A stretch of DNA of 64,000 bases, from the NCBI GenBank assembly GCA_045110695.1, contig JBGCGH010000023.1:34238-98237 (forward strand). The letters run 5' to 3'. The number at the start of each line of letters is the position of its first letter. Position 1 is the stretch's first letter. Under the pieces are notes generated by a model. That model saw only the letters and a list, made by a program, of their open reading frames with translations. It was not told the DNA's origin and made no database searches. The position numbers were made by a program, and so were the translations under genes. This document shows positions 2,632 to 63,655 of the stretch, piece by piece. The stretch comes from Bdellovibrionales bacterium (GTDB taxonomy: Bacteria; Bdellovibrionota; Bdellovibrionia; Bdellovibrionales; UBA840).

Positions 2632-2656
2632 TAAGTGGCCTCTCAGAATCAACAAA

Positions 2657-4122: not shown

Positions 4123-4130
4123 GAATTTCT

Positions 4131-4161: not shown

Positions 4162-4180
4162 TTACTTAACTTCAATATAC

Positions 4181-5692: not shown

Positions 5693-5866
5693 AAATGGAT
5701 CCTTAGGATTTGAATTCTCTAAGGTGATAGAACAGATTGTAAGAGATGCAAAGGAGCAAGCTTTAGGAGTGAAATACTGTAAGAGTTGCGACTCTCTATT
5801 TGAATATTCTTCATTTTTTTTCGGCCTTATGCTAAACCTAATCCATTGCCACATGAGGGGATTTTC

Positions 5867-6886: not shown

Positions 6887-7006
6887 ATGTCTTAACAAGA
6901 TAGGCAGTTTTCTAATTGTTAAATCAACACAACTTTAGGCCCGAAACATGCACCTGAATTGGAACTTTGGACTCCTCAAGTCTGGAAAACCAATTATAAT
7001 AAATCT

Positions 7007-8245: not shown

Positions 8246-8251
8246 TATTTC

Positions 8252-8893: not shown

Positions 8894-8964
8894 ATTAGAG
8901 TTTCCTTATGTTTCTATTTTCACGCCTACCAAGTGCTGCGTCAATACTACTAAAGTCCAAGTCC

Positions 8965-11019: not shown

Positions 11020-14000
11020 TTTAAATACCTCGGCAGTAGGCGGTAGTAGGTAAAACTAGTGTTTGCCCCGGTTGGATCGTATTTAAAAAACTTATCTAGG
11101 GCTCGTGAAATATTAATTAAATTTATATTTCTAGGATCCATAGAGCGAACTTTTTCGCTATACAGTAAGGCTCTCTCCATTGAATTAGAGTTTAAATCTG
11201 CAAGCAAGAGGAGATTGTAAGCCTCCGCCTCGTTCGGAGCTATTTCCAAAAGCCTACCAGCGGTAACAACAGCTTCTGCAATACGCTTGTCTTCCAATAG
11301 GCTAAAAACAAGCTGCTTGTATAGCTCAATATCTCTCGGTTTATCAAAGAGTCTTGCTCGGATCGACCTTATGCCATCTCCATAATTTTCTTTAAATTCT
11401 AGTTTTTTTGGTTTAAAGAATATTCTCTTTTTAGCCTGACAGCTCAAGATATAGTCATTGTAAATTCTATTTTTCTTCCCTAACTTAAAGCACTGATCAT
11501 AGTAAGAGCTGGCTGAATCCAGATAAGGCTTTGCTTGTTGAGATAGAATATCTCTATACTGTTTACTCTGTACTTTTGTTAGACCTTTTGGGATCGGTGC
11601 CTTTTGCACAAAGGACCCAAACTCATCGTTCAACTGTGCTAGGTTAAATAGACTAGCGACGGTCCATTTTGGATGACCTGACTGGATTATCTTATTTAAG
11701 TCTTCGGTAATCTTTTTCAAAATGGTGGCTTTTTTTGTTACTACTTTATCGATGTTTTTTGAAGAACGGAATCGTATCCTTTTAAAGTCCCTTACTTGAA
11801 TATCTGATCTTAAAAAATCAGCTTCAAGTTTTGTCTCGTTTTTACTTCCGGCTTTGGCCAGACTCTTACTGAGCCCTGCTAGACTTTTCTCGGCTGCTTT
11901 CCATTTTTTCTGTTTTATATACGCGTAGGACTCCCAAAGTCTAGCTTGTGAACCACCCACGACTTTAGCGCTTTTCTCTAAACTTTTCCAATCCTGAGAT
12001 TTAAAATCTATTTCAGCGATCTTCCTTTGATTGTTCAATTGCTCAAAAACTTCCCTAGCTTTCGGGAAGTCCCCTATACTTTCTAGGATTCTAGCAGCTT
12101 GTTTTCTAAAGCCTTTAGACTCTTTTGCTTTGGGATAGTTGTCCGAAAATACTAGCAGATATCTAGCCGCTCGAGAGAAGTCCGCCGTATTTAATGCAAT
12201 CTGAGCCATATCGCTGGCAACCTGCCTTACATACTTAGATTTTTTATATCTTTTTAGGAGCTCCTCTCCTGGCTCATACATCTTCTCTGATCTCTGGGAA
12301 CGATAAAGTAAAAAAGCCTCGAACAGTGCTTTATCGCCTAATTTTGACCCCTTATATCTATCTGCTAACTTCAAAAGATTTTTAGCATAGTCTCCAGATC
12401 TAAAATCTCCACTCTCTTTTTTGATTTTAAGAACTCTTGCTTGAGATAAAATACCTTTTACGGTTCGTCTTAAATCATTGTTTCTTACCTTGGATTTTTT
12501 GAGAAACCAAATAGAATCCTTTATCATTGAGTCGTAATCTTCCCGTTGATTATGTGTATCTAATAATTGGTTCACGGCTAGATTCACATAGGAATTCTTA
12601 GGATGAGCCACTATAAACTGCTTAAAACTCCTAATTGCACTATCAAAAAGTCTTTCATCATAATAAGTTTGAGCAATATTAAACTGTACGGTGGGAACAG
12701 TTTTAGATTTTTTATATCGAGATACAAAAGCCCGGCCTATTTGCCTGACTCCCCTTCTAGCCATATAGACCTCTACATCTTTTGTACCGCCGGGATTTTT
12801 CAATATTGCAATATAAGATTCTAAAGATGCTTTAATGGCGGAGAATCTCTTTCTTTTATTTTGAGTTCTTTTATAAAGCCGTTCAAAGGTTAAACCCGCT
12901 TCAAGATAGTCAGCGGTACGGAATAAATAGGCACCGTAGTTCCTCGTCATTGCCAAGCTAAACTTTTGCCCTTTAAACAAACGAAGATAAAGCTTATAGG
13001 CATTTTTAAGGTCAGACTGAATGTCTTTTCCTGCTCTATGACGCTTATCTAATTGAATGCAATAATATCTAAATATTCTTTCAATATTTTTTTTCAGCTT
13101 AGCCCGTTCTTTTTTCTCGTAAATCTCGGACTTTTCTACAAATTTGTGGGCCTCTAAAAGCGCTATCGGCAAGGATGGTATATCGATATTTTTTAATTCA
13201 GCCTTAGAAATATTAAATATATTTTCCACTGCATCGATCTTTTCCCTTGAGTTATTACTTAGCTGATGGAATTCGACCCAAGCATCTCTTGAGTCCTGAT
13301 ATCTTTTTTTAATACTCATTCTCTTTGCCAGGCGACGAAGTAGTTTAAGATAACTTGTATATCCAAAAGATAGTTTTCTAAAATGCTCTAAGGTTGATGT
13401 GGAAGGATCGTGAATCTTTGAGATATTTTTTAAGTCTATCTCTGAGTAGGGCCATACCATATCTAAAATGGAATTTTCTCTTATATCGATTTTCAATTCT
13501 ATCTGGTTATTTTTGACAATATCATTGGTGGACTCAATAGCTTTCTCAAATGAAAGATAGGAATCCAGAAACTTTCTCTCATTAATATATACCCAACCGA
13601 GCTTGTGATAGGCAACACCACTAAAGCTGTTTAGGCCACGATCCACAACGCCCTCAAAAGACTTACGGGCGGTATCTAGATCTTTTTTCACCTCTAAATA
13701 GAAATTTCCCATTGCAATACGACTTTCTTCCCAAAATTGCGAGCGGGGGAATTTTTGCGTTAGCTGGCGGTAAGTTTCTAGCATCTCTTCGCTTCTACCA
13801 AGCTCTCGCAGTTCGTGAGCTTTATAAAAAAGAGCTTTATCTCTATCAGGATGATTTCCAAATTTATCAAAGAAGCTTTCATATACAGCTATTGCCTCAT
13901 CCTTTGGCCTCTTCTCTAAGGTAAAATCCAAATCTTTCTGCGGAACTTCTGGATTTTCCAAAATTTTTATTTGATATAAATACCTGCTTTTCTCAGTTAA

Positions 14001-14201
14001 ATATTCTGCAAGGACAAAATATAGATCAGCAAGGAATGTTGCATCCTGCATAGATTTCATTTGCTCTTTGGTGTTCTCGATATTTTTATCTACTCTACTA
14101 AGTTCCCGCTCCAATTGAGGCAGCCCCTTAGATTGAAAATCCTGGCTCTGAATATTCACAGAGAAAAATGTAATAAGAAAAAGAGCAACTACCCTACTCA
14201 T
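11016..14201 (-). CDS. Large periplasmic TPR-repeat protein (GltD/AgmU-like size and context)
   Basis: 1061 aa. Signal peptide MSRVVALFLITFFSVNIQS. All-helical repeat composition with many A/Y/L TPR-like units. Overlaps both neighbours (coupled). Confidence 0.6.
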   Translation of the reverse strand: MSRVVALFLITFFSVNIQSQDFQSKGLPQLERELSRVDKNIENTKEQMKSMQDATFLADLYFVLAEYLTEKSRYLYQIKILENPEVPQKDLDFTLEKRPKDEAIAVYESFFDKFGNHPDRDKALFYKAHELRELGRSEEMLETYRQLTQKFPRSQFWEESRIAMGNFYLEVKKDLDTARKSFEGVVDRGLNSFSGVAYHKLGWVYINERKFLDSYLSFEKAIESTNDIVKNNQIELKIDIRENSILDMVWPYSEIDLKNISKIHDPSTSTLEHFRKLSFGYTSYLKLLRRLAKRMSIKKRYQDSRDAWVEFHQLSNNSREKIDAVENIFNISKAELKNIDIPSLPIALLEAHKFVEKSEIYEKKERAKLKKNIERIFRYYCIQLDKRHRAGKDIQSDLKNAYKLYLRLFKGQKFSLAMTRNYGAYLFRTADYLEAGLTFERLYKRTQNKRKRFSAIKASLESYIAILKNPGGTKDVEVYMARRGVRQIGRAFVSRYKKSKTVPTVQFNIAQTYYDERLFDSAIRSFKQFIVAHPKNSYVNLAVNQLLDTHNQREDYDSMIKDSIWFLKKSKVRNNDLRRTVKGILSQARVLKIKKESGDFRSGDYAKNLLKLADRYKGSKLGDKALFEAFLLYRSQRSEKMYEPGEELLKRYKKSKYVRQVASDMAQIALNTADFSRAARYLLVFSDNYPKAKESKGFRKQAARILESIGDFPKAREVFEQLNNQRKIAEIDFKSQDWKSLEKSAKVVGGSQARLWESYAYIKQKKWKAAEKSLAGLSKSLAKAGSKNETKLEADFLRSDIQVRDFKRIRFRSSKNIDKVVTKKATILKKITEDLNKIIQSGHPKWTVASLFNLAQLNDEFGSFVQKAPIPKGLTKVQSKQYRDILSQQAKPYLDSASSYYDQCFKLGKKNRIYNDYILSCQAKKRIFFKPKKLEFKENYGDGIRSIRARLFDKPRDIELYKQLVFSLLEDKRIAEAVVTAGRLLEIAPNEAEAYNLLLLADLNSNSMERALLYSEKVRSMDPRNINLINISRALDKFFKYDPTGANTSFTYYRLLPRYLK

Positions 14202-15669
14202 CGGCCGAGACCTCCGATTCCTCTTTATTGCACTTTGAGTTTACAAGTACTCGATAATCCTCAAATTCCTGTAACCAAAATTCACCGCCACTTTTCCAAA
14301 ATAATTTGTCAAACTTATATTTTTTAGGCTTTTCAGACTCATAGCCTTCTTTATTTACATTGAGCTGATTTCTTTCAATCTCAGAGGAATACTTTAAAAA
14401 ATTTATTTCTTGTCGAATTTTTAAAAGATTATCAGCTTCGGCCATGCTTCTGTCACGAGTCTCAAACTCAATATACTCTTTTTGTTCTTTTAGAATCTCA
14501 TCCAGTTTTTGTTTTATAACTTTGTTCAAAGAGGAATTTTTAAGAAATTTATTTTTAGAAATTTTATTAATATTTCTTATCATCTGAACTGTAGGCAAAA
14601 GATCTTCGGATCTAAAAACCAATTGTATAAGCTTTACTTCTTCTGCAAGACGCAATCTAGCATTTAATGCAAAAAAACTATCCTCAAAATAATTCAAGAA
14701 TTGGGTTTCCACTCTTTTAATTTCGTCATAATAGCATAAGTCTTTATAAATCAGAGCCTCTAAAACAAACTGCTCTGGATCTGCCGAACTCACATAGTAA
14801 GGTGCCTTTAAAAGATGAAGTAGTCCTAGACTATGACTGAAATCTTTAGCGTAATATTTAGACCATGCCATTTCGAGCAACACTGTGGATGAAAGTTTCT
14901 CATCAAAAACTTTCAATTCTTTATAAACCTCAAAAGCCTTTTGCATTTCCCCGATTTCAAATAGAAATCTGGCTGCAAACAGACGAAGCTTCTCCTGATT
15001 TCGCTCTGGGATTAAGCTTGTATCTAAAAAATTTTTTATTGAGTTATAGGCACCTACTCCAGTTGCTAATTTTAGCCCGTCAATCAGCTTGTCAAACTTG
15101 TAAATATTATGCCAAATTGAGTTTTCATTGATTCTTTTTTTTGACTGTCCAGCCCAATCCAGGAATCCCTTTTTAATGAAAAACTTCATTTGAATATAGG
15201 AAATGAATGACTGAGCCTCAGGGTGCATCCCTTCAATAGACTGACCTAAAAACCAAGATTCCAACATTTTACTGGGCACAAAAAGATTATACTTTGTTAT
15301 CAAATTAGATATCTCAATTGTCGCTCTCTCGAAATACTTAGTGCCTTTTGCTTTTTCTATAATGTAGGAATAAATAGCTAGTGCCGGCCAATAATTCTTT
15401 TCGCTCACAAGCTTTTCAGTTAGTAGTATCAGACTTTCAAAATTTGCAACTTCTAGTTCAGACTCCTCAAATTCTAAATCTAAGGCCTCATAAAATTCTT
15501 TGAGTTCTTCGTCTTTCTTTGCCTCTAAATAACGTTGTTTTAGGCTCGCATCATCATAGCTATAAGTATAGGCTTTCCAATCCCTTGTCAGACTCTCAGT
15601 CGTAAATTGCCCCTGTGACTTTTGAAAGACTAAAACAAATAAAACTATAGTTGCGGCTCGAAACCCCAT
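14194..15669 (-). CDS. Periplasmic helical-repeat (TPR-like) protein (GltE/AglT-like size and context)
   Basis: 491 aa. Signal peptide MGFRAATIVLFVLVFQKSQG. Helical-repeat composition. 8-nt overlap with the downstream TPR gene. Confidence 0.5.
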   Translation of the reverse strand: MGFRAATIVLFVLVFQKSQGQFTTESLTRDWKAYTYSYDDASLKQRYLEAKKDEELKEFYEALDLEFEESELEVANFESLILLTEKLVSEKNYWPALAIYSYIIEKAKGTKYFERATIEISNLITKYNLFVPSKMLESWFLGQSIEGMHPEAQSFISYIQMKFFIKKGFLDWAGQSKKRINENSIWHNIYKFDKLIDGLKLATGVGAYNSIKNFLDTSLIPERNQEKLRLFAARFLFEIGEMQKAFEVYKELKVFDEKLSSTVLLEMAWSKYYAKDFSHSLGLLHLLKAPYYVSSADPEQFVLEALIYKDLCYYDEIKRVETQFLNYFEDSFFALNARLRLAEEVKLIQLVFRSEDLLPTVQMIRNINKISKNKFLKNSSLNKVIKQKLDEILKEQKEYIEFETRDRSMAEADNLLKIRQEINFLKYSSEIERNQLNVNKEGYESEKPKKYKFDKLFWKSGGEFWLQEFEDYRVLVNSKCNKEESEVSADE

Positions 15670-16350
15670 CTATAGAGCCTTCTTTTTAAGATATTTCGGT
15701 GGATCTCCTAGTTGAAAACTATAGTCGGCACCAACATAAAGAAAACTCCTTACGCCATCGATTTCATCAAAATGAATATTTAAATCAAAAGCAAGTTTCC
15801 AAGACCGCCCAAGCTCAGTGTAATACCTAGTGTATGCCCCCAAACCTATTAAGGGCTGATAGCCTGTTTCTTTAAACTTCACCCCACCGAGCGACAATCT
15901 AAAGCTGGTTTCGTTATTAATAAGTTTTGAATTGAACATTAGGGTTTTAGAATAGTACGGCGTATAGATCCAACTAGTTGTTATAATGTGATCAATATAG
16001 TCTAACTTTCCTTTGAAATTATTAGAATTTAAATCGACACCCAAATCTATCAAATCCGTTTTTAGGGTCTGCTCTAAGTTAAAACTTTGTCGAAATTGAA
16101 TAATCTCCCAAGCGCTATAGTTCTCGTAAAAATAGGTGTACGAAACTCCTAGGGTCACCCCCTTGTTGAAGGCATCTGAAGGAAGTAATCCGAGGCCCAC
16201 ACTAAGATCATGATCGAGATAATTGGACTTATTTTGAATAGCTACAAGCTCTGGTGCTTTAAACACTTCTTCAGGTAACTCGGCGAAAAGTAACTGAGTC
16301 ACTAAAGTTATTGAAATAATTAGATATTTGTTCACAAGTATCCCCCTCAC
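15670..16350 (-). CDS. Putative outer-membrane beta-barrel protein (first gene of the gliding operon)
   Basis: 226 aa. Signal-like N-terminus. Alternating hydrophobic/aromatic beta-strand pattern (GVTLGVSYTYFY, LAFDLNIHF, LYVGADYSFQL). Its stop abuts the next ATG. Confidence 0.45.
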   Translation of the reverse strand: MRGILVNKYLIISITLVTQLLFAELPEEVFKAPELVAIQNKSNYLDHDLSVGLGLLPSDAFNKGVTLGVSYTYFYENYSAWEIIQFRQSFNLEQTLKTDLIDLGVDLNSNNFKGKLDYIDHIITTSWIYTPYYSKTLMFNSKLINNETSFRLSLGGVKFKETGYQPLIGLGAYTRYYTELGRSWKLAFDLNIHFDEIDGVRSFLYVGADYSFQLGDPPKYLKKKAL

Positions 16351-52123: not shown

Positions 52124-53878
52124 TCATTGTAAGGGGGATAGATTACCTCGGCCAAAAAGCCTTAAACCTCGATGGACTAAGTCATAAACGGAGCTGTCTT
52201 CCTCTGCGAGATTCTTCAGTTCTGACTCGAGTCGGTCAGACAAGGAGTCCAATGCTAAAATTTCAGATAACTCTAAAATTTCCCATCTCGCTAACCAATT
52301 TTTTGGATCTACAGATAGAGAGTCTTGGTGAAGCTCTACAAGCTGAGATTCAGTTATATCATTTGATTCTCGTAAATTTCGAAGCCTACCTAAAAGATCC
52401 GAAAAGGCTTTATTATCTTCAGTTAGGTTAGTTTTATGCGGTTTAGCTTTTAGCGTCATTTCCTCGACCTGACTGAGGTATGAAGCGCGATCTGGAGCTC
52501 CACCAAAAACCTCCGCCGCCTCCGTTGAACAAGCCATATCAAAAGTTCCCCAACTAGGATCAAAAAGAACTTCGCTTCCTAAGCTCACCGTACAATCTTC
52601 AAAGCTAAAAATTTGATTTAGCCCAGAAAACCTCGTGATCTTAATTAAACGTCCCTCAATTAAAACTCCAGATTGGTACTTTATCTTGACAGAATTCCCC
52701 TCCAGGAGTCCCTCTTTCTCCAGCTCATCAAAACTAAAATGATCCAAGCCTTTGTCATAAGATTCTATTTTTCCTAGCGGAGTTCCAAATCCCTCTTTGT
52801 GGTATAGTGGGCCCTGACCAGGGATTTCTTTATTGTTTTCAGCTAACTGCGTAGGCCCTGTAAAATGTAAATAACTAACCAAACCTTCGTGGACCCGATA
52901 TTTTACCAACTGACCGCCAACCTGTAAACCGCTGGAAAGTTCAGTAGTGGTCACTGTTTCAGCTCTTATGGCTTTATCTAAGGACTCAGTGCTTGGGTTT
53001 GTATAGGCCATTGTAGCGGCCAAATCATCGATTACAGACTCCATCTCTTTAAAACTCTCAGCATAAAACAATTGAGGTTGTGGTTTTGTAATATCATAGT
53101 CTTGCTTGATACAGTCTATTGTCAGCGGAATCTTCTTAACTTCATCTCCGAGACAAGTATAACTTTCACCAATCGAACTCAACAAACCCGCGCCATAGAT
53201 TTTAAATTCTCCACCTTCTTTAATTAGGCCGTACTCTAAAGACCACCAACCTAAACGCGCCGCCTGTTGAGCCTCACTAACATAGCCAACAGTTTTGTAA
53301 GCCTCATCCAAATTCTCTTGCGCTTTTTTAATATCTTCTTCTGAGCTTTCTGGGTCCTCTTTTGTTTCAGATAAATTCAAGATAGCCTCATATACCACAC
53401 AGTCTTCTTTAGCGAAAATTACTTTCCTAGCTAAGCTTCCAAAACGTCTGAGGAAGCTCGCATAGGATGGATCGGCTATTATGGGAGCATGCCCTGCAGC
53501 TTCATGCACTATATCTGGAGAGGGGGTATATTCAATATTCTCCAGTTTTCTCATATCACAAGCTATAGGTAGAATTCCCAAACTTAACATTTCTAGAAAA
53601 ATAGCTGGGGGTACGAATCCAGTAATGGGAACAGCTCTCCATCCAAACTTTTGTAAACGCTCATCCATCTCAGAGATTTTGGGAATGCGCTCGGTACTTA
53701 TTCCTGTTTCATTCAGACCATCTAAGTATTTTGAGTGGGCCTTATGTTGAAAATAGTATTGGGAAATCTTCATGATATATCGCCAAACACTATGATCCGT
53801 ATGTGTATATAAATCGTAATCTTGAGTGGCGATATACTGGCAAAGGTGGACTGGGATTGTTTTAATTACGGTTTCCAT
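52124..53878 (-). CDS. Aromatic amino acid hydroxylase-like protein (long form)
   Basis: Iron-binding PDIVHEAAGHAPI (PDxxHExxGHxP) in the N-terminal half. About 300-aa C-terminal extension of unknown function. Confidence 0.75.
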   Translation of the reverse strand: METVIKTIPVHLCQYIATQDYDLYTHTDHSVWRYIMKISQYYFQHKAHSKYLDGLNETGISTERIPKISEMDERLQKFGWRAVPITGFVPPAIFLEMLSLGILPIACDMRKLENIEYTPSPDIVHEAAGHAPIIADPSYASFLRRFGSLARKVIFAKEDCVVYEAILNLSETKEDPESSEEDIKKAQENLDEAYKTVGYVSEAQQAARLGWWSLEYGLIKEGGEFKIYGAGLLSSIGESYTCLGDEVKKIPLTIDCIKQDYDITKPQPQLFYAESFKEMESVIDDLAATMAYTNPSTESLDKAIRAETVTTTELSSGLQVGGQLVKYRVHEGLVSYLHFTGPTQLAENNKEIPGQGPLYHKEGFGTPLGKIESYDKGLDHFSFDELEKEGLLEGNSVKIKYQSGVLIEGRLIKITRFSGLNQIFSFEDCTVSLGSEVLFDPSWGTFDMACSTEAAEVFGGAPDRASYLSQVEEMTLKAKPHKTNLTEDNKAFSDLLGRLRNLRESNDITESQLVELHQDSLSVDPKNWLARWEILELSEILALDSLSDRLESELKNLAEEDSSVYDLVHRGLRLFGRGNLSPLQ

Positions 53879-55155: not shown

Positions 55156-55461
55156 ATGTTTGGAGGTCTTGCAATATATTTTCATGGAAAAATGGTTCTT
55201 GTTTTGGCAGAAAAAGAAGGCGATCTAAGTTACCGTGGGAAAAAATTTAAGCAGCCAATTTTTTATGGATGCTTGATACCTACGTTTTATGCTTTTCAAG
55301 ATATGGTAGATAGAAATATTCCTGGTACAATACAACATCCCGTTCTAAAAAAATGGATGTATCTTCCTCTTCAATATGAAGATTATGATACATCCATAGG
55401 TCTTTTGGTCGGTTTTATTAAAGCTCAGGTAGAATGGATTGGTATTCCGCCTAAGGCTTAG
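55156..55461 (+). CDS. TfoX N-terminal-domain-like protein, apparently 5'-frameshifted
   Basis: MFGGLAIYFHGKMVLVLAEKEGD resembles TfoX_N. The frame is open upstream to 55069 without a start, while ATG 55085 (abutting the hydrolase stop) is in another frame (see findings). Confidence 0.5.
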   Translation: MFGGLAIYFHGKMVLVLAEKEGDLSYRGKKFKQPIFYGCLIPTFYAFQDMVDRNIPGTIQHPVLKKWMYLPLQYEDYDTSIGLLVGFIKAQVEWIGIPPKA

Positions 55462-57206
55462 TTGTTTTTGGCTCCAGAATCGAGCCATCTTTTAAAGTCT
55501 CTAATCCCAGCAGGAGAAAGTCCACCAACCGAGAAAGGCATTTTATAGTTTCTCTCTTGGCCAGTTGGATCGGAGTCGGAAATAAGCCTGTCATAAAGCT
55601 CAGAACCTTCGGCATTTCCAGGTACAATTACCCCTTTTCCAACCATTAATCTGTAGTCAGATATATCATAACCGCCTTCAGCTCTAAAACTATTATGGCA
55701 TCTAATACAACCATTAGTATCAGCATCACCTGCTCCTTCTTCTATGGCAATCCGGTTTTCCATAAGCCAAGCGAAAGATTGAGAAGGTAATCCTACATGT
55801 TTGATATCATCATCCAATAGTCTTATCTCGTACCGATTGACCTTAGAACCAGTTCTACTATCAATAGCTTCTGCATTTGAAATTGAATCTTCAGCAAATG
55901 CTATCCGAATGCTCTCAAAGTTCTTTGTTACCGTGCCTGAATCGTTTTCTTCGTTTTCATATAGATCATCATCATTTATCATTACAATAATTTCTTTTCT
56001 CGTTTCTCCGGCGGCAATTTCAAATAGACTACCATTCACCTCATAATCCCAATTTACCGTTTTTCTTAAGGCGTTATCGTTATCCATCTCTGGAATTAAC
56101 ACAAGACTTCTCCTAGATGCGGTACCGGAAAAACTCAACCTGAATTGTACAGGTAAATTTATAGATTCCGGTTTCCTATCCAACTCAACTATAATTTTTT
56201 GAATAGGATAAGTTGTGTTCTGAACTGCACTTATATCAACATTTCCATCGTTTAATTTAGGAATCGATCCCTCAAAATATTCCTCAATTTCCCAACCGTT
56301 AGTAGCCGCTGGAATAGATTTTTTAGAATTCGGAATATTTTCTAGTTTAAAAGAGATTGTCGGAAAGGAAGCTGTTTCAGGACATACTGTCTCTTCTACT
56401 TCTAGAAGAGCTATACTGAAAAACTCACCACCTTGAACTATATAATCTGTGATTACAGAGGTGGTTCCACCAAGTGATTTTGATTCACCTGGCTTCAGAC
56501 ATACACTCGATTTATACAATGTATTTTTACCTAGCGAATTACCATTCATATAGTAATCAACACCCGTGATAAGTAAATCAGAATCTGCAGATGGATCTAA
56601 ACGAAGTTCCGGTGATGACACTGCAACACCCCAAACTTGACCTAACTCTACCATGTCCTCAATCCTGGAACTGGCAGACAATCCTTGAACCCCATTAATA
56701 TCTGAATACTCAGGATTATAATCTTCAAATGACCAATTTAGATTCCTACTATCTGGGTTTTGAGGATTGGTTATAATATCAAATTCAATATCACTAACAG
56801 AAATACTTCCTTGAGCAGTTAATAAAATTTGTTCCCACTCGGCCTTAAGACGATCAATAATCTCTTGGTTATGTGGACCTCCGGTACCATGACTACTTAC
56901 CGCTCTTAGAGACACATACTCATAGCCAACTGCATAAAAATCTCGGAAGGCCCGATCAATATCACTCGATCCAAAGTGACCGGAGCCACCCCCACCTGAA
57001 ACATGACAACTACTACAGTTGGTCACTAGAAAGCCAGAGTATCCATCTGGTTTCAAAAACTCATCTCGCATTACATTTTGCACAGCGACCTCAGAAAGAC
57101 CCACGCTGGAGCCTAGTTCTGTATGAGTAGAATTACAATTGTTAAAGCTAACCAGAATGATACTAAGGGTACCAAAAGCCGTCAGCAGTCTCCAACTATC
57201 CTTCAC
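55458..57206 (-). CDS. Lipoprotein with two CxxCH motifs, Calx-beta-like module and C-terminal PSCyt1-type (planctomycete cytochrome c) domain
   Basis: Signal/lipobox LSIILVSFNNC. First motif CSSCH. Calx-beta-like module FEIAAGETRKEIIVMINDDDLYENEE. C-terminal CIRCHNS...VIVPGNAEGSELYDRLIS...MPFSVGGLSPAGIRDFKRWLDSGA. Confidence 0.6.
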   Translation of the reverse strand: MKDSWRLLTAFGTLSIILVSFNNCNSTHTELGSSVGLSEVAVQNVMRDEFLKPDGYSGFLVTNCSSCHVSGGGGSGHFGSSDIDRAFRDFYAVGYEYVSLRAVSSHGTGGPHNQEIIDRLKAEWEQILLTAQGSISVSDIEFDIITNPQNPDSRNLNWSFEDYNPEYSDINGVQGLSASSRIEDMVELGQVWGVAVSSPELRLDPSADSDLLITGVDYYMNGNSLGKNTLYKSSVCLKPGESKSLGGTTSVITDYIVQGGEFFSIALLEVEETVCPETASFPTISFKLENIPNSKKSIPAATNGWEIEEYFEGSIPKLNDGNVDISAVQNTTYPIQKIIVELDRKPESINLPVQFRLSFSGTASRRSLVLIPEMDNDNALRKTVNWDYEVNGSLFEIAAGETRKEIIVMINDDDLYENEENDSGTVTKNFESIRIAFAEDSISNAEAIDSRTGSKVNRYEIRLLDDDIKHVGLPSQSFAWLMENRIAIEEGAGDADTNGCIRCHNSFRAEGGYDISDYRLMVGKGVIVPGNAEGSELYDRLISDSDPTGQERNYKMPFSVGGLSPAGIRDFKRWLDSGAKNN

Positions 57207-58706
57207 TTATCCCCCAAACTTATTGATTTTATCATAATCAGATTCACTGATTATACCCCTACCAACAACTTCATTAAACTTTTCGATTTGCCCAGCAAAT
57301 CCTAGATAATTTAAAAATACACCAGCGGCAGCTATTTCAGCGATTCCACCTATGACTTCAGACTCATCTACACCTTGACCTTCTTTAAAACTTCCCAACT
57401 GGCTACCTTTTACAGTAGATTGGTCCTTTAGATTAGGTCGACCGTTGGGACTGAAAGCAAACATATACCACATTCCCCTTGTTCCACCATCAGATGTCCA
57501 AACAGCTTCACCGGGAATTTCCGAATCAGGCGAAGTTACACAACCATCGGTAGTTACTGTGCAAAAAACTTCTTTATTCATTTGTGCAGCAGAAGCTAGG
57601 ATTCTTCCTACCATCTGACCAGCGACTCTATCTTTTTCATCGCCATTCGTTCTGGTATTGTCATGATAATCATAACCACCCATCATTAAGTTAGCAAGTG
57701 GAGCATTTCCCTTAATCGCATTAAAGGCAGCGGAACCAAAAACATAGTTTCTACTATTTGAGCCAGTGTCTGCATCCACTCCCCACACTCCTGCATAATC
57801 GGTTACATCACCGCCAACAATCATTGGGTCAGTACCGAGCTCGTCTCTAGAAATCAAATCAGAGTTTTTGATCCCAGCACATTTAACAAGATTCTGAAGT
57901 TTTGAGCCATAGGTCATTGAAGCAATATCTCTGAGTTGTCTATCATTCATGCTAGAAACTAGTTTTATTAGTTTTTCTTGGTTAGCTTTTCCACCCAATT
58001 GTTGTTGCCAATCTCCTGTAAGAAGAATACTTCTTTCGAGATCATCTACATTATTAATATTTACTGGGGCTTTTGGAGCTACCATGGCCGCACGATTTCT
58101 GTTTCCAAAGATACCTGGTAACATTTCACCAGAGCGAACCTTATCAACCATACCTGATATATCAATTTTATTCTCCGCAGTATCATCTCTGGATTCCACA
58201 CAAACACTAACAAAAGAAGTGTTATTAATTGCGTTTCCTGCTGTTTCTTTTAATCCTTCCAGAAAAGTGGAATTTGCGTACCAAACACTATTTCCAAATT
58301 CAATACTAGTTTGATTAGAAAGCTGAGCTCTAGTACCCAAACCAATTTTGGAATAGCTAGAGATCATCTGCCCACCTTTATCCAAAGGAATTGCATGGGA
58401 GCTTAAACCTGATCCACCACCTAAATTCACATTTATAAAACCTGGCATTTGACTAGCACTTCCTCCAGCACTACATCTACTTGCACCCTGGGCATGAGCA
58501 TTGTTTATCCCAATTACTTGCAATAAACTTGGAGTTACAATACTTGCCGCGAAGGGAATTAAGCCCGTCGCTAAGAAATCTCGTCTAGTCACCGGCTTTT
58601 TATTATGAAGACCTTCAAATGTAACTTCCGTTTGATAGTTCTCGTTCGTTATATCTTGATTTACTTTTTTCTTTATATTTTTCTTTTTGTTTTTCATGGT
58701 CCCCAC
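57207..58706 (-). CDS. Tat-exported DUF1501 family protein (sulfatase/alkaline-phosphatase superfamily)
   Basis: Twin-arginine signal TRRDFLATGLIPFAA. GGYDYHDN corresponds to the GGWDTH motif of DUF1501. 499 aa. Confidence 0.7.
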   Translation of the reverse strand: MGTMKNKKKNIKKKVNQDITNENYQTEVTFEGLHNKKPVTRRDFLATGLIPFAASIVTPSLLQVIGINNAHAQGASRCSAGGSASQMPGFINVNLGGGSGLSSHAIPLDKGGQMISSYSKIGLGTRAQLSNQTSIEFGNSVWYANSTFLEGLKETAGNAINNTSFVSVCVESRDDTAENKIDISGMVDKVRSGEMLPGIFGNRNRAAMVAPKAPVNINNVDDLERSILLTGDWQQQLGGKANQEKLIKLVSSMNDRQLRDIASMTYGSKLQNLVKCAGIKNSDLISRDELGTDPMIVGGDVTDYAGVWGVDADTGSNSRNYVFGSAAFNAIKGNAPLANLMMGGYDYHDNTRTNGDEKDRVAGQMVGRILASAAQMNKEVFCTVTTDGCVTSPDSEIPGEAVWTSDGGTRGMWYMFAFSPNGRPNLKDQSTVKGSQLGSFKEGQGVDESEVIGGIAEIAAAGVFLNYLGFAGQIEKFNEVVGRGIISESDYDKINKFGG

Positions 58707-58719
58707 CCTTAATAATCCT

Positions 58720-59352
58720 TTAATTTACAAATGCATCTGCTGAAGCTAAAATAGCCGTACACATAAACAGACTTGCCGTTCTTGGATCTGGACTATTTCC
58801 ATAAGTATTTACAATCTCGTTCAAAATTCTATCTCTCTCTTCCGGATCTTCATTTCTTCTCCAACAAGATCGGCTAAGGCGTCTCATTGAGTTTACCATT
58901 GCCTCTTCCTGCCACTGGTCTCTATCAAAGTCTATTTCTTTGAAAAATCCCCTATTACTTGAATCCAATATTTCTTCTGTTCTAATTACGTTATCACAAA
59001 GAGCTCCTGAAAGACTTGTAAGAGCCATCATCATTGGTCCGTTTACCTCTCCAGCTTCACCCTTGATAGCTAAACTTGCTTTAGTATTATTAAAAGTACT
59101 AACCACATCATTAGACAACTCATCATCGCGTATTTGTAAACACTCCGTGTAGTTATCTAAAACCTGTCTTGCAGAAACAACACTTACGGTTTTCTCACCG
59201 TAAAAAATAATATCTTCAGCCGCAAAAACATCTAAGTTACCAGAACCATCAGCGTGGTACTGACTACAGGCATGTCCAAAACCAAGCATCATTGCACCAG
59301 AAAACATTAGTAGTGATACAATTTTTATATTCCTACGTTTCATATTAAACAT
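58720..59352 (-). CDS. Hypothetical lipoprotein
   Basis: Signal plus lipobox MMLGFGHAC. 210 aa, helical. 8-nt overlap with the upstream gene. Confidence 0.45.
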   Translation of the reverse strand: MFNMKRRNIKIVSLLMFSGAMMLGFGHACSQYHADGSGNLDVFAAEDIIFYGEKTVSVVSARQVLDNYTECLQIRDDELSNDVVSTFNNTKASLAIKGEAGEVNGPMMMALTSLSGALCDNVIRTEEILDSSNRGFFKEIDFDRDQWQEEAMVNSMRRLSRSCWRRNEDPEERDRILNEIVNTYGNSPDPRTASLFMCTAILASADAFVN

Positions 59353-61414
59353 CCCCTATACATTCTTTCGACGTAACTACTCTTTGAAAAAGCTTTTTAA
59401 GATTAAAGTCAGTTTTGAATTCTACTGCTTTTTGATCAATAAAATTATCTTCAATTGGCGTTGCCTCTCTTTTACAAACAGATGCGAATACTCTTTTAGC
59501 CATACAACGAGGAAAAGCCTCTGTACCGGCAACTTGCCTTGCAAATGCAGGGAGACCCTTTCCATCGCTAGTATCACTCCAGCCTATAAGGTTCGCATTT
59601 TTACCTAGATTGGCGTAGTTCTTAAAACTATTGTCAACAGTGACGTGAGCCGCTGGTGCAACATCATTATTATTTGCAAACTTATAGGATACCCACTGCG
59701 GCACACCATTAACATCCACAGTCCTCACAAACATGTTACTATCAAAATTTGCTTTACCTTTATCAAATCCTATTACGGGTCCGTAATTCACATAGCCACC
59801 ATCAAAGTCATACCTTGAAAAGGCATCTCTGAAACCGTCCATAGGAACATGACAGGATTTACAGTTAATTTCAAATTTCTGATGCTCTCCGCTCGGCAAA
59901 CGCGTAATGTCTCTACCGATTCGGTTGTCTGGACCTCTGGTACTCGCAATTTCGTCGATACCAAGGCATAAAAAGTTTCTAAAAGTATACTCTACAGGTC
60001 TTCTCCCTGTCCCTAAAATATGGTGGGCACCCATAAAAGACCTTGATGTTAACAGACCAGCCGGTGCTTCATGGACAAGCGGATCATCTCTACCATTTGT
60101 TAACATTTGAGGGACTTTTTCTAAATAGGCTGAAATATCTACGCCCTGCTCGTTAGCTAATTTTTCTAGAGCACTATAGTGATTATTAGACATTAGTATG
60201 TCGTTGTTCATATTTTGAGGAGCGCCACTAGCAGGTGAGGCCTTGTAAATATAGTTTCCCGTTAACATTTCTTGCGCAGACCTATCGTCTCTTACTAAAC
60301 CCATAATAGTGGCAGTGAAATCGTTTAGTACTGTATCAACCGTTTCTTCTCTGGTTGACATTCTTGCACCAAAGTCCTTAACCGTTCTATTAATAAAACC
60401 TGGGTCACTAGTTGCAATTGCCGCTGCACCTTCTAAATCTCCTGAATCAATTTTTTGAGCCATGGCCAATATTGAAGGGTGATCTACCGATAAGCGCTTA
60501 CCAGTTATTCTGGTAAATATTACTGAGGCAGTTTTTTGTGACCCACTTACTTCGTCAAACATATTACTATCCGTGATCTGAACATTTGTTGGATCAGGTA
60601 AGCCGTTAATTTGGGTCAAACTCAAAGAGCTACAACCTAACTTCACAGATTTTACTTTTCCTTTCCAATGACTTGCATCCGTACCGGAATCTACGCTTGG
60701 GTCATTACCAATATAAAGATGAACATCATTTTTCATCAAATCATCTAATTTAGAAAATGGTGCCTCACCACGAGATTGCTGTACCATGTAACCATCACGA
60801 TCGCTTAAATACAACTTAGCTTCACCCAAACGGTTCACTGTGTATACCAATCTTTGGAAACTATCTATTGGCTGAGCGTTAACCCCTGAATCAGCATTCT
60901 TATAAAGTGCATTCTCTTTAGTTTGTATACCCTCATCGGCCACTAAAAATGGACCTGCGTTATAAATTTGTCTTAGGCTGAATAAACTGTTGAAGTCGCC
61001 ATCGTTATTCACTCGACCAATAGATAACATTCTGTCGTCATCCGTAGTGCTTTCCAGAAAACTCTCGGCGTTGAAAAGTAGCTCTAAGTTAAACTCTTTG
61101 GAGTCGGGGGAACAAGAACTGAGGACTGAACCTAAGCTGGCTTCCAATCGAATAAAGTTTGCAGACATATCAATGTGTCTGAAGCCAGATGTATCTAGCC
61201 TTACATCATCAGCATCATAGGCTGGATCTCCGATGCTATCACTTGGTATACCTCCAACTACAAACTTTTGTCCGCCATTGGAAATCTTGTAGATCCTACC
61301 GTTACTTCTCTCCACTCCAACAGAGTTGAAATCAAAATTCAACTCTTGAGCATTTAAAGAAATGCAACTCAAACCAAATGCTGTAAAATACAGTACATTT
61401 TTAAATACTACCAT
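59345..61414 (-). CDS. Secreted protein with single CxxCH motif (DUF1588/PSD-like C-terminal half)
   Basis: Signal MVVFKNVLYFTAFGLSCISLNA. AGLLTSRSFMGAHH...RRPVEYTFRNFLC and CKSCHVPMDGFRD resemble the planctomycete PSD/DUF158x family partners of DUF1501. Confidence 0.55.
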   Translation of the reverse strand: MVVFKNVLYFTAFGLSCISLNAQELNFDFNSVGVERSNGRIYKISNGGQKFVVGGIPSDSIGDPAYDADDVRLDTSGFRHIDMSANFIRLEASLGSVLSSCSPDSKEFNLELLFNAESFLESTTDDDRMLSIGRVNNDGDFNSLFSLRQIYNAGPFLVADEGIQTKENALYKNADSGVNAQPIDSFQRLVYTVNRLGEAKLYLSDRDGYMVQQSRGEAPFSKLDDLMKNDVHLYIGNDPSVDSGTDASHWKGKVKSVKLGCSSLSLTQINGLPDPTNVQITDSNMFDEVSGSQKTASVIFTRITGKRLSVDHPSILAMAQKIDSGDLEGAAAIATSDPGFINRTVKDFGARMSTREETVDTVLNDFTATIMGLVRDDRSAQEMLTGNYIYKASPASGAPQNMNNDILMSNNHYSALEKLANEQGVDISAYLEKVPQMLTNGRDDPLVHEAPAGLLTSRSFMGAHHILGTGRRPVEYTFRNFLCLGIDEIASTRGPDNRIGRDITRLPSGEHQKFEINCKSCHVPMDGFRDAFSRYDFDGGYVNYGPVIGFDKGKANFDSNMFVRTVDVNGVPQWVSYKFANNNDVAPAAHVTVDNSFKNYANLGKNANLIGWSDTSDGKGLPAFARQVAGTEAFPRCMAKRVFASVCKREATPIEDNFIDQKAVEFKTDFNLKKLFQRVVTSKECIGDV

Positions 61415-63435
61415 TGCCCCGGCCCCTCAAATTGTACATAGTCAAAAACTGATACTTTTCCTCTATTCTGTTTACTGACATCGATATTAAATTTCGGTGA
61501 ACCAACTACTACATTAGAGCCGCTTGCATCTAAAGAATAACCAAATTGGCTACCAGATTTTCTTATTCCCTCGTTGATGTGGATTACTCTATTTTTCTTT
61601 AAAACAAACTGATTCTTTCCAGCAGATTCATTCATAATTGGATCTTTAAAACGGTACCAATCTACTTTTCCACCAACTTCAGCCATGAACGGGCTAGAGA
61701 TAAAAAGATTGGAGTTTTCGTCCATAGATAGTGAATAACCAAATCCACTAGTACCATTTAATACTGCTCTGTATATAGAATCAGTAATATCGAAAACTAT
61801 GACCCTACCCGAAACATCCGCAGCTTTATAATTAGGTGCTCCGATAGCCAATTTTCCATCATTGGATAGATCAACACTAAAGCCAAATTCATCATTTGGC
61901 TTTACATAATCACCTTCAAAGGTTTTAACTTTTGTAGCACCATTCATAGTACTGTTTAATTTAAAAAGGTGCACTTTGCCTTTCTGATTCGAAGTTCGAT
62001 TAAAAGGTCTTCCAGCCGCAACATATAGGTCAGCTCCAATTTTACTCATTGAAACAGAGTATCCAAATTTAGCTTGATAGATCCCAGACTCAGGATCACT
62101 AATTTTGAACAATGGGCTTAGAGACTCGTTTAAAATTGTAAGACTACCAAAACCATCGTTATCTTCATCAATACCGGATACAACGTAGCCAGAAGCATAA
62201 TCAATACTTGCTCCAACTTTATAAGTGTTGTTACCCAGAAATTGAGTTGGATTTGCAGACTTAAAAGTTCCATCTGCGTTTAACTCATATCTCCACAAAG
62301 CGCCGTTATAATCGTTGGCGATAGCTGATCCTGCGTAAACAAATATTTTATTTTGACTATTTCTCACAAGCTTCAGTGAAGTAGGAAAAGTTCCACCCCT
62401 GAAGCTACTTAAATCTACTCGCTGTGATTGGTCCCAGGTATCATCTGAGTTTGAAGCTAAATTCGCTCCCTTATTTAATCTATAAATTTGAATGTAGCCA
62501 TTGTTAGAACTAGGACCCACGTTTGCCTTACCCGCAAGGGCAGCCATTAGGTCGCCATCTATACTTACCGCTTCACCAAGCTCGTCATAATTTAGAGGAT
62601 CTTTACCGTCTAAATCTTTTGATTTCAGGCATGAATTAATAACCTGAACTTGAAATCTACGTTCATTACTTTTTATGTTAGCACAGGCGCCCAGTTCGCT
62701 TCTAACAACAACCTCAAACTCTCCAGACCTACACTCAGAATCGTTTCCATTGGCTATTGTGATCATTCCGTTATTGTTACAATTCAAATTTACGCCACCA
62801 GTTCCCATGGCCTGGCAGTCTTCAGCAGGATTACTCGTTTGCAGCTCTATAGCCTGGGTTTCACCATTTCGACGAATCACCCTTCCAGCCGAAGCCATGA
62901 ACCGAATTCTGTCTGCAGATTCACCAGTTATGTGATCAATTTTTTGGTTTAGGACAGGCAGAAGGGACATATGAGTTCCAGCTGTGTCGCTTGCGTCACC
63001 CATTCCTGAATAAAAATATACTTTGTTATTAAAATTGCTCCCTGTCTTGCTATCTATGTCGACAGTCACTTTAGGGTTACTGGAATTAGACTCATATCTT
63101 ACCCAGTTTAAAACAGGAGCTTCAGGTACTAAATTTAAACCGTCCTCGGTATATGGCACACATGCATCTACAGGAGGTAAAGGTGCTGGTTGGTCATCAA
63201 TGATGATTCCACCGCCGTCGTCGTTTCCACCACCATCTTCTGGTGGGTTTGTGTTTTCGTCATCGATACCACTACCAGCTACGTTAATGCTAGCAATAGG
63301 CTCTAGTCTTCCACAGTTTTGATAGGATACTAGAATGATTAAACCAAACAGGAGTACTGAAAGTTGAACAGAATTTCTTTTAATTCTACCTTTTCCCAAT
63401 TCGCCCCCTACAACGAAATTAAATATACGTCTCAC
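61408..63435 (-). CDS. FG-GAP (integrin-alpha-like) beta-propeller lipoprotein
   Basis: Lipobox-like LIILVSYQNC. G/D-rich linker. At least four FG-GAP units (FGYSVSMSKIGADLYVAAGRPF, FGFSVDLSNDGKLAIGAPNY, FGYSLSMDENSNLFISSPF, FGYSLDASGSNVVVGSPKF). The likely true start is TTG 63399 (GGGGG SD) rather than GTG 63435. Confidence 0.65.
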   Translation of the reverse strand: MRRIFNFVVGGELGKGRIKRNSVQLSVLLFGLIILVSYQNCGRLEPIASINVAGSGIDDENTNPPEDGGGNDDGGGIIIDDQPAPLPPVDACVPYTEDGLNLVPEAPVLNWVRYESNSSNPKVTVDIDSKTGSNFNNKVYFYSGMGDASDTAGTHMSLLPVLNQKIDHITGESADRIRFMASAGRVIRRNGETQAIELQTSNPAEDCQAMGTGGVNLNCNNNGMITIANGNDSECRSGEFEVVVRSELGACANIKSNERRFQVQVINSCLKSKDLDGKDPLNYDELGEAVSIDGDLMAALAGKANVGPSSNNGYIQIYRLNKGANLASNSDDTWDQSQRVDLSSFRGGTFPTSLKLVRNSQNKIFVYAGSAIANDYNGALWRYELNADGTFKSANPTQFLGNNTYKVGASIDYASGYVVSGIDEDNDGFGSLTILNESLSPLFKISDPESGIYQAKFGYSVSMSKIGADLYVAAGRPFNRTSNQKGKVHLFKLNSTMNGATKVKTFEGDYVKPNDEFGFSVDLSNDGKLAIGAPNYKAADVSGRVIVFDITDSIYRAVLNGTSGFGYSLSMDENSNLFISSPFMAEVGGKVDWYRFKDPIMNESAGKNQFVLKKNRVIHINEGIRKSGSQFGYSLDASGSNVVVGSPKFNIDVSKQNRGKVSVFDYVQFEGPGQW

Positions 63436-63541
63436 TTATTAATCTATCGGCTCAAGATAGGATTAGACTAAAGTCTTTTTGTAATTTTTTGTGGCTTTTT
63501 TGAGAAAAATCTAAGAATCGTCAAAAGTCTGTACAGGGGTG

Positions 63542-63594
63542 TTGTATATTAGGCGAACACTTCTTATAATTTGCTGTCTAACTTTTGGTTAGAC
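63542..63594 (+). promoter_or_regulatory. Promoter plus perfect palindrome upstream of the ABC-F gene
   Basis: TTGTAT (63542-47), 17 nt spacer, TATAAT (63565-70). GTCTAAC-TTTTG-GTTAGAC palindrome at 63576-63594, just downstream of the -10. Confidence 0.4.
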
Positions 63595-63655
63595 ATTAAT
63601 TCTTAAAACACTTTGTTAATTATGTAGTTAATTTAGACACCCCAGGAAGTGAATC

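Follow-up and report, generated by a model that had tools for sequence, protein, structure and literature searches.

A probable phylum-wide gene module of Bdellovibrionota distantly related to the planctomycete PSCyt/PSD and DUF1501 gene pairs

An operon of five genes (g1 to g5, in order of transcription) was analyzed on the minus strand of contig JBGCGH010000023.1 of a Bdellovibrionales bacterium (assembly GCA_045110695.1), within a stretch of 64,000 nucleotides (positions 34,238 to 98,237 of the contig) referred to here as the window. The operon probably represents the long form of a module whose four-gene core, g2 to g5, is conserved across Bdellovibrionota, and the identity and architecture of this module can be given with considerable confidence. 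Judged by sequence homology, it appears to be the Bdellovibrionota counterpart of the PSCyt/PSD and DUF1501 modules of Planctomycetes, Verrucomicrobia and Lentisphaerae (hereafter planctomycete-type modules) and of the gene pairs formed by DUF1800 and DUF1501.

Five exported products are encoded in a tightly packed operon

Comparison with the list of open reading frames (ORFs) confirmed five minus-strand genes: g1 (61408-63435; 675 aa, a lipoprotein with an FG-GAP propeller), g2 (59345-61414; 689 aa, Sec-exported, with an N-terminal lectin-type and a C-terminal haem-motif domain), g3 (58720-59352; 210 or 207 aa, a lipoprotein), g4 (57207-58706; 499 or, probably, 496 aa, exported by twin-arginine translocation (Tat) and matching no Pfam model) and g5 (55458-57206; 582 aa, a lipoprotein with two CxxCH motifs and a PSCyt1 domain). 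When the longest ORFs are taken, g1 and g2 overlap by 7 nt (61408-61414) and g2 and g3 by 8 nt (59345-59352), a gap of 13 nt (58707-58719) separates g3 from g4, and g4 directly abuts g5 (57206/57207). The coordinates, lengths and junctions are those of the original prediction, as is the export of all five products, for each of which a Sec, Tat or lipobox signal was read and judged together with its conservation among homologues.

Some translation starts probably lie further downstream. For g4, the ATG at 58697, which leaves a gap of 22 nt, is the probable start and matches the 496-aa NCBI product P0001; g3 probably starts at the ATG at 59343 and g1 possibly at a TTG near 63399. The packing remains tight whichever of these starts are taken, and Shine-Dalgarno-like G-rich runs were read within each upstream gene at the junctions. 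Upstream, the operon is bounded by a 215-nt intergenic region followed by a divergent ABC-F-like gene, and downstream by a convergent ORF (101 aa) that overlaps the g5 stop codon, so the five genes form one delimited unit. Their G+C content is similar to that of the remainder of the window, in which the g2 and g4 families occur in a single copy each. The five-gene arrangement is far beyond chance.

In g1, g3 and g5, an N-terminal hydrophobic stretch ends in an atypical lipobox ([FY/G][QNH][NAG]C), and the three proteins are accordingly predicted to be lipoproteins and substrates of signal peptidase II.

The g2-g5 gene order is fixed across Bdellovibrionota

Genomes of GTDB species representatives were scanned with the g4 alignment, which returned 294 relatives; the best 80 of these 294 are almost all from Bdellovibrionota and include six cultured Bdellovibrio sp. 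HCB strains. The ORFs called in 87 of the loci were then matched against a profile of each of the five proteins, and 82 distinct g4 loci, again nearly all from Bdellovibrionota, remained after de-duplication. Among loci with enough flanking sequence, on which the synteny counts are based, g2 lies upstream of g4 in 68 of 68, g3 directly precedes g4 in 76 of 76, and the gene after g4 encodes a g5-type protein in 72 of 72. The same g2-g3-g4-g5 order is held by the most distant relatives examined (28-29% identity).

Fifty-two loci were fully flanked, and these fall into three forms. The short form (27 of 52) lacks g1 and has a g2 of ~410-450 aa without the lectin domain and a g5 of ~390-410 aa. 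The long form (16 of 52) combines g1 with a long g2 and a long g5, and an intermediate form (9 of 52) has a long g2 but no g1; wherever g1 is present, it is accompanied by both long partners. The window carries the long form, and all five genes are shared with its closest relatives, the marine contigs L004, L006, L008 and L009. The original prediction had named absence of co-conservation elsewhere as evidence that would speak against it; instead, the five genes recur together in the 16 long-form loci and the g2-g5 core recurs wherever the flank allows. Co-conservation in so many other loci indicates that the gene set is real.

An additional g5-type cytochrome gene is found downstream of g5 in 18 of the 52 fully flanked loci, 12 of them among the 16 long-form loci with g1. 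In many long-form loci (L013, L015-L017, L019, L020, L022, L026, L036, L039, L046, L047, L061, L065, L071 and others) this gene encodes ~200-260 aa at a distance of about 3.0-3.4 kb from the g4 start, and the two products scanned (~235 aa) contained PSCyt1 and Cytochrome_CBB3 domains. In the window, no such gene follows g5 and the convergent 101-aa ORF is found instead. Several loci also have a small monohaem cytochrome c gene nearby.

One module is present per locus and at most two were seen per genome, although copies were not counted systematically. On L014, a contig of an uncultured Bdellovibrio sp. metagenome-assembled genome (MAG), a long and a short module stand back to back on opposite strands (697-10597), and two separate copies are carried by the MAGs ACE_BDE2 (L031, L064) and DT_12 (L019, L084). 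With two modules in each of these three cases, the long and short forms appear to coexist as paralogues. Typical Bdellovibrionota-type modules were also seen on L075 and L083, which are labelled as 'Bacillota bacterium' and 'Streptomyces griseus' MAGs; these contigs have probably been misbinned or mislabelled in the public databases.

g4 is a Tat-exported protein outside the DUF1501 family as defined

The g4 twin-arginine motif TRRDFL (58572-58589, minus strand) bears out the predicted Tat signal, with P38, R41, R42 and L45 invariant in an alignment of 36 g4 sequences. The n-region of this signal is unusually long (~40 residues), and its part beside the arginine pair is conserved (consensus ...WAxTGHxKPVTRRDFL); this segment might be a chaperone-binding or proofreading determinant.

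In a profile search of 1.84 billion representatives, clustered at 50% identity, at least 1252 clusters reached E <= 1e-3, and none of the family members examined had a name or a Pfam domain; g4 also lacked an NCBIfam match. On this evidence, g4 appears to belong to a family without a Pfam model. Its AlphaFold2 model (predicted local distance difference test score (pLDDT) 79.7; predicted template modelling score (pTM) 0.78) was compared with solved structures using Foldseek, and all 50 matches listed are alkaline-phosphatase-superfamily structures (sulfatases, alkaline phosphatases, phosphonoacetate hydrolase, EptC/MCR-1 and ENPP), albeit with weak scores (best E 5.8e-3). An alkaline-phosphatase-superfamily fold is thus probable but weakly supported, and the sulfatase/alkaline-phosphatase assignment made originally holds to this extent.

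The assignment of g4 to DUF1501 itself, also part of the original prediction, did not hold. With the Pfam DUF1501 model (PF07394; gathering cut-off 27 bits), no match at E<=1 was obtained for g4, for any of the 36 alignment members or for 9 of 10 further members, and the best score in the family was a sub-threshold 15.4 bits (E 0.011) in P0281, so that the model fails on g4 and 46 relatives. As a comparison set, metagenome genes were fetched with a DNA pattern for GG[WFLC]DTHxNQ, and all 10 of the encoded DUF1501 proteins tested as positive controls scored 68-156 bits. A profile comparison with hhalign between the g4 family and verified DUF1501 proteins gave a probability of 96.2% (E 2e-9, 370 columns) with signal peptides included, 55.6% (E 1.2e-4, 327 columns) after trimming them, and 12% (E 2.4e-3, 136 columns) with larger trimmed alignments; unrelated control pairs gave 0.1-0.2% (E 0.3-0.4). 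The first value was not taken at face value, being inflated by the aligned Tat signal peptides. Nonetheless, the register was identical in all three runs, pairing GGYDYH with GGWDTH, SDG with SEFGR, and SD(R/G)G with GTDHG.

The aligned DUF1501 proteins share the arginine pair and the invariants GG-x-x-D50, S120-H121, GG-x-D272-T-H274-x-N-Q, S-E-F317-G-R319 and G-x-D330-H331-G. Of these, g4 retains the GG after strand 1, D346 and H348 (equivalent to D272 and H274) within its GGYDYHDN motif (57657-57680, minus strand; aligned with GGWDTHxNQ), and the acidic residues D387 (= E316) and D406 (= D330). D175, D346, H348 and D406 are invariant and D387 nearly so in the 36-member alignment, making D346 and H348 candidate metal ligands. 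Other positions are replaced, with D50 becoming A/S, S120-H121 becoming D174-D175, R319 becoming V and H331 becoming R/G. Taken together, g4 is likely a very distant relative of DUF1501 that lies outside the family as defined. The DUF1552/HXXSHH model (PF07586) had no match in g4 or its relatives at E<=1, and the HXXSHH motif is absent from the alignment.

g2 and g5 carry candidate haem attachment sites

The export signal of g2 is of the Sec type, with no conserved cysteine. Its AlphaFold2 model (pLDDT 78.2, pTM 0.62) consists of an N-terminal beta-sandwich and a well-predicted helical C-terminal domain. The beta-sandwich (residues 25-260; 60635-61342, minus strand) is of the concanavalin-A-like/LamG kind in Foldseek comparisons (E 2e-6, probability 1.0), where all 50 matches listed are lectin-type jelly rolls, including the botulinum toxin Hc-N domain, the trans-sialidase lectin domain and legume lectins. 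Pfam Laminin_G_3 was detected below threshold in 6 of 27 g2 homologues (best E 0.002). The modelled N-terminal domain therefore has a predicted concanavalin-A-like lectin fold, and it is this domain that is missing from the short-form g2.

Homologue alignments (40 clusters were obtained for g2) define a conserved, mostly helical domain at residues 291-689 (59348-60544, minus strand), in which a PSCyt3-like CxxCH region is followed by a PSD2/DUF1585-type tail. Its CKSCH motif (C518, C521, H522; 59849-59863, minus strand), a candidate haem c attachment site, is invariant in alignments of 27 and 40 sequences, as are four further cysteines of the domain (C483, C637, C647 and C685). Exactly one CxxCH was counted in 76 of 84 g2 matches from related loci, the remaining 8 being mostly ORF fragments.

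The window g2 itself had no Pfam (E<=1), NCBIfam or Protein Data Bank (PDB) sequence match, and domain assignments rest on its homologues. PSD2/DUF1585 (PF07624) matched the last ~70 residues of 25 of the 27 homologues at E<=1, with P0129 (30.6 bits), P0144 (28.3 bits) and P0133 (26.1 bits) above the cut-off of 25.8; membership of the window protein would follow by homology to these relatives, with which it shares 33-41% identity over the domain. PSCyt3/DUF1588 (PF07627) was detected weakly in 7 of the 27 (E 0.06-0.17, covering the CxxCH), with scores of 13-17.5 bits that do not reach the cut-off of 27. What was originally predicted for g2 thus stands for the single CxxCH and, through relatives, for PSD2, while the DUF1588 part stays below the cut-off. 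PSD3, PSD4 and PSD5 (DUF1587/DUF1592/DUF1595) and PSCyt2 (DUF1549) were not found in scans of g2 and g5 at E<=1, and PSD1 (DUF1553) gave a single match (E 0.2) in 1 of the 27 g2 homologues. DUF1800 (PF08811) reached 28.8 bits in P0125 at model positions 211-289, overlapping the PSD2 region, and an hhalign comparison of the g2 C-terminal alignment with 31 verified DUF1800 proteins gave 64% (E 6.5e-5) over 64 columns only. The similarity of g2 to the ~420-residue DUF1800 model is therefore local and does not extend over its full length. Direct sequence searches of g2, g4 and their family profiles against all PDB chains returned noise only.

In g5, the lipobox SFNNC ends at Cys24, and homologues carry NNC. 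Two candidate haem c sites were read from the translation, CSSCH (57003-57017, minus strand) in the cytochrome-c-like N-terminal part and CIRCH (55695-55709, minus strand), which opens the PSCyt1 domain (residues 500-545; 55572-55709, minus strand) and is followed ~50 residues downstream by a conserved Met-Pro motif (...YKMPF...). PSCyt1 (PF07635) scored 29.8 bits against a cut-off of 22, together with the CxxCH and Met-Pro features, whereas Pfam Cytochrom_C fell just short (20.3 bits; cut-off 21.3); a short-form g5 homologue matched Cytochrome_CBB3 at 37.7 bits. Two CxxCH motifs are present in 102 of 123 g5-type matches. The haem attachment motifs of g5 thus lie in domains that appear homologous to class I cytochromes c. 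The beta-rich middle of the protein, which exceeds that of the short form by ~170 residues, had been predicted to hold a Calx-beta module, but Calx-beta (PF03160; cut-off 27 bits) gave only 17.1 bits (E 0.0059; residues 361-427) in g5 and 14.7 bits in the L004 orthologue; unlike the two CxxCH motifs and PSCyt1, this part of the prediction was not upheld.

g3 is a core lipoprotein and g1 a long-form propeller protein

The lipobox cysteine of g3 (C29) is kept in 80 of 80 homologues, in agreement with its original description as a lipoprotein, and C119 and C198 are also invariant. No Pfam, NCBIfam, PDB or hhalign match was found for g3, and no relatives were detectable outside the module. It was ruled out that g3 is a detached piece of g2, DUF1800 or DUF1501 (hhalign probability 0.2% each). 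By these comparisons g3 would constitute an orphan lipoprotein family not covered by Pfam.

As predicted, g1 is an FG-GAP lipoprotein. A G/D-rich linker follows its lipobox (SYQNC, Cys41), and FG-GAP_2 was matched in three stretches at 52.5 bits (cut-off 23; 5.5e-14), while a loose purpose-written pattern detected four FG-GAP-like repeats at residues 407-646. About 25 full-length homologues (E 1e-76 to 1e-166) occupy the equivalent position in their loci, most of them with the lipobox FQNC, and the five scanned all matched FG-GAP_2 (23.7-101.8 bits). The gene occurs solely in the long form of the module. Cross-matches between g1 and g5 in jackhmmer searches were rejected as a shared domain, as they were due to common signal peptides and low-complexity linkers.

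Relation to PSCyt/PSD, DUF1501 and DUF1800 gene modules

Modules of PSCyt/PSD and DUF1501 genes were reportedly described by Studholme in 2004. They are found in Planctomycetes, Verrucomicrobia and Lentisphaerae, where a Tat-exported DUF1501 protein is combined with PSCyt cytochromes, sometimes with Laminin_G_3, and one four-gene cluster consists of DUF1501, a secreted protein, a PSCyt1-Big_2-PSCyt2-PSD1 protein and a PSCyt1-WD40 protein (PMC3542564, PMC5615132). The modules are stated to be of unknown function (Kamneva 2012, PMC3542564; He 2017, PMC5615132; PMC5122149), in accordance with the view taken in the original prediction, with which the 2016 chitin-synthase study (PMC5122149) also agrees. 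Keyword searches of the literature to 2026 returned no later functional characterization of the DUF1501, DUF1800 or PSCyt/PSD-type families.

As in planctomycete-type modules, a Tat protein related to DUF1501 adjoins CxxCH-containing 'planctomycete cytochrome' proteins in the operon studied here. A LamG-type domain on a partner, a beta-propeller protein, an additional secreted protein, PSCyt1 and, judged by the homologues of g2, a PSD2-type domain are likewise present. In contrast, g4 is missed by the DUF1501 model and has several invariant residues replaced, and PSCyt2, PSD1, Big_2 and WD40 are absent. The propeller is of the FG-GAP type without a haem motif, unlike the WD40 protein with its PSCyt1 domain, three of the five proteins are lipoproteins, and g3 forms an orphan family. 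Whereas genomes with planctomycete-type modules carry many of them, here one was found per locus and no genome was seen with more than two, and the gene order is fixed phylum-wide in a different phylum, Bdellovibrionota.

PSCyt3/PSD proteins of the DUF1585-DUF1588-DUF1592 type are paired with another uncharacterized family (He 2017 Fig. S7b, PMC5615132). The C-terminal domain of g2 resembles them in placing a PSCyt3-like CxxCH ahead of a PSD2/DUF1585-type tail, and g2 has an operon partner exported by Tat, but PSD3, PSD4 and PSD5 were undetected and PSCyt3 remained below the Pfam cut-off. The other family is presumably DUF1552, and unlike its HXXSHH motif, the corresponding motif of g4 resembles the GGxDxH of DUF1501.

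Pairs of DUF1800 and DUF1501 genes occur, for example, beside bacterial chitin synthases (PMC5122149). Among 78 metagenome ORFs with GG[WFLC]DTHxNQ (L090-L209), 32 had a same-strand upstream neighbour ending within 200 nt; all 10 of these neighbours that were tested are DUF1800 proteins, and none of the 32 contains a CxxCH. A type IX secretion sorting domain was seen at the C-terminal end of one DUF1501 protein (L118). The module shares with these pairs a Tat-exported DUF1501-type gene directly 3' of a gene for a helical partner, and the g2 tail has the local similarity to DUF1800 noted above. It differs in that g2 has a CxxCH, in that the g2 similarity spans only ~64 residues, and in that no g3-like or g5-like gene has been reported for DUF1800/DUF1501 pairs (PMC5122149).

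With the alkaline-phosphatase superfamily, g4 shares a predicted alpha/beta core and acidic and histidine residues (D175, D346/H348, D387 and D406) at the C-terminal ends of core strands. It differs from the superfamily in lacking a sequence-level match to any solved member and an identifiable Ser/Thr/Cys nucleophile motif, in having only one invariant histidine and a ~90-residue helical insertion, and in its constant pairing with haem-motif proteins.

Proposed assembly and alternative explanations

Considering these features, the following scheme is proposed. g4 would fold in the cytoplasm, probably binding metal via D175, D346, H348, D387 and D406, and would cross the inner membrane already folded by the Tat pathway, while g2 and g5 would be secreted unfolded through Sec and acquire their haem c once in the periplasm. 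Through its lipoproteins (g1, g3 and g5) the assembly would be tethered to a membrane, possibly the outer membrane since none of the three has Asp at position +2 (E. coli sorting rule). The metal centre of g4 may then act on a substrate, which in the long form would be held by the lectin, propeller and beta-rich parts, and the three haems may move electrons between the g4 reaction and the respiratory chain. That the proteins form a physical complex is a reading we slightly favour. Any particular chemistry, be it ester hydrolysis or haem-coupled oxidation, is tentative at best. Ranked first is hydrolysis or transfer of an anionic ester-type group, in keeping with the rest of the superfamily, followed by haem-coupled oxidation, pure binding and a maturase role of the haem partners, none of which exceeds this tentative level. 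A rather unlikely reading is that of a new type of periplasmic redox enzyme, in which electrons would pass between the haem domains of g2 and g5 and a metal centre of g4 remodelled from the alkaline-phosphatase fold. Its reaction might, for example, be the oxidation of reduced phosphorus or sulfur compounds, or the oxidative cleavage or modification of an envelope or prey polymer.

Several observations weigh against this scheme. That haem is attached, metal bound and a complex formed is itself read from sequence. No redox chemistry of the alkaline-phosphatase fold is known to us that would account for the haems. The structural matches of g4 are weak (best E 5.8e-3, TM score about 0.2), its hhalign similarity to DUF1501 drops from run to run once signal peptides are trimmed, and with D50, S120/H121, R319 and H331 replaced, its active site, if any, must differ from that of DUF1501. 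The g2 C-terminal fold was unmatched to any solved structure, the neighbouring genes in the window and related loci include no regulator or recurrent functional partner that would point to a function, and no Bdellovibrio bacteriovorus orthologue is named as such among the 120 listed of 483 matches, all 'hypothetical'.

The module could instead be a periplasmic respiratory oxidoreductase for a small inorganic or organic compound, with g4 as a non-hydrolytic catalytic subunit that the haems of g2 and g5, joined in many loci by the extra dihaem protein, would wire to the cytochrome c pool and terminal oxidases. Three conserved haem c motifs per module, the extra g5-type cytochrome gene in 18 of 52 loci and the small monohaem cytochrome c gene near the module in several loci fit this explanation, as does the short form, whose lack of binding domains suggests that the core needs no polymer substrate; Tat export is also typical of periplasmic redox enzymes that bear cofactors. 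We nevertheless regard it as unlikely, given that no redox cofactor site is known in the alkaline-phosphatase superfamily, that g4 lacks a conserved Cys/His cluster and has one invariant His, and that no molybdopterin, Fe-S or flavin motif or chaperone gene was found in the cluster. A maturation role, in which g2 (and g5) would oxidatively modify a g4 residue or load its metal after export and would thus be the dedicated maturase of an enzyme, is far less probable. In its favour, each protein of the alkaline-phosphatase fold is strictly paired, one to one, with a haem protein here, in planctomycete-type modules and in the DUF1800/DUF1501 pairs (PMC3542564). Sulfatases of the same superfamily require oxidative residue modification, as in formylglycine formation. 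The DUF1800 partners, however, have no CxxCH, so haem is not universal to the pairing, and the g4 position aligned with the Ser-His of DUF1501 is Asp-Asp and thus non-oxidizable.

Surface binding or prey recognition, with the lectin, propeller and beta-sandwich binding a glycan or protein of the prey or the environment and with g4 and the CxxCH domains being structural or sensory and not catalytic, is distinctly improbable. This reading, which comes near to that of the original prediction, is consistent with the long form gaining three binding-type modules together, with lipoproteins that may reach the outer membrane for want of Asp at +2, and with a host phylum that is largely predatory by source-record names. 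Yet the commoner short form (27 of 52 loci) has no binding module at all, invariant acidic and histidine residues at the alkaline-phosphatase-type metal positions of g4 argue for a working site, and no surface-export signal or adhesin repeat was found. Somewhat less probable again is ordinary membership, whereby g4 would be a plain DUF1501 protein and g2 and g5 plain PSCyt/PSD partners as in Planctomycetes. The kinds of parts are indeed the same (Tat signal, GGxDxH, CxxCH proteins, PSCyt1 and a LamG-type domain), but the DUF1501 model fails on g4 and 46 members, residues invariant in DUF1501 are replaced, PSCyt2, PSD1 and PSD3-5 are absent except for one PSD1 match (E 0.2), g3 has no counterpart in any library, and the gene order and lipoprotein anchoring are phylum-specific. 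That five unrelated exported proteins merely lie side by side, as their lack of a shared Pfam family might suggest, is refuted by synteny and can practically be dismissed, since 68-76 independent loci, some as low as 28% in identity, keep one order, and the frames overlap or abut.

Significance of a compact version of the module

Pairs of DUF1501 with planctomycete cytochrome, PSD or DUF1800 partners are widespread and have been noted repeatedly, with their function unexplained since 2004. The many paralogues present in Planctomycetes and Verrucomicrobia would make their genetic analysis difficult. The Bdellovibrionota module is a far-diverged version of the pair with a four-gene core fixed across the phylum at low copy number; it is present in cultured Bdellovibrio isolates with complete genomes (HCB strains, CP178618-CP178624) and exists both as a minimal version and as one elaborated by extra binding domains. 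It may therefore offer a compact, possibly genetically tractable entry to the biochemistry shared by the PSCyt/PSD-DUF1501-DUF1800 pairs, and it defines two protein families beyond Pfam, g4 and g3. If haems were coupled to a phosphatase-fold metal site, this would be a new kind of enzyme chemistry, and working it out in Bdellovibrionota would also show what the very large PSCyt/PSD-DUF1501-DUF1800 superfamily does. If they were not, the module would still be a conserved envelope component of predatory bacteria.

Upstream region and neighbouring genes

The operon promoter presumably lies in the intergenic region (63436-63651) that separates g1 from the plus-strand ABC-F-like ATPase gene. A scan with a sigma-70 promoter pattern did no better than on shuffled sequence. 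No riboswitch or leader was detected with Rfam upstream of the operon here or in 7 related loci, and a terminator pattern scan gave no convincing internal terminator in the operon. A perfect 8+8 palindrome with a 5-nt spacer (TGTCTAAC-TTTTG-GTTAGACA; 63575-63595), unique in the window, could be an operator or stem-loop. It is absent from 89 related loci and was rejected as a conserved element, not being kept in relatives.

In some marine and distant loci, genes for prolyl-tRNA synthetase (ProRS), a SpoU-type methylase and an NtrY/NtrX-like sigma-54 two-component pair lie near the module (e.g., L004 1721-17966, L006 8072-9784 and L088 12353-17377). The window itself has none of these neighbours, and this neighbourhood looks like ancestral synteny and not a functional link.

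Elsewhere in the window, a second tightly packed run of four minus-strand genes (8965-16350) encodes products of 226, 491, 1061 and 684 aa, and its successive junctions are an abutment, an 8-nt overlap and a 4-nt overlap. TPR repeats were recognized in the 1061-aa product and an FHA domain in the 684-aa product; the 226-aa and 491-aa proteins have no Pfam match. The 584-aa protein encoded at 52124-53878 (minus strand), whose C-terminal half has no domain assignment, contains a biopterin-dependent aromatic amino acid hydroxylase domain (112 bits) and is about double the length expected for a bacterial enzyme of this kind.

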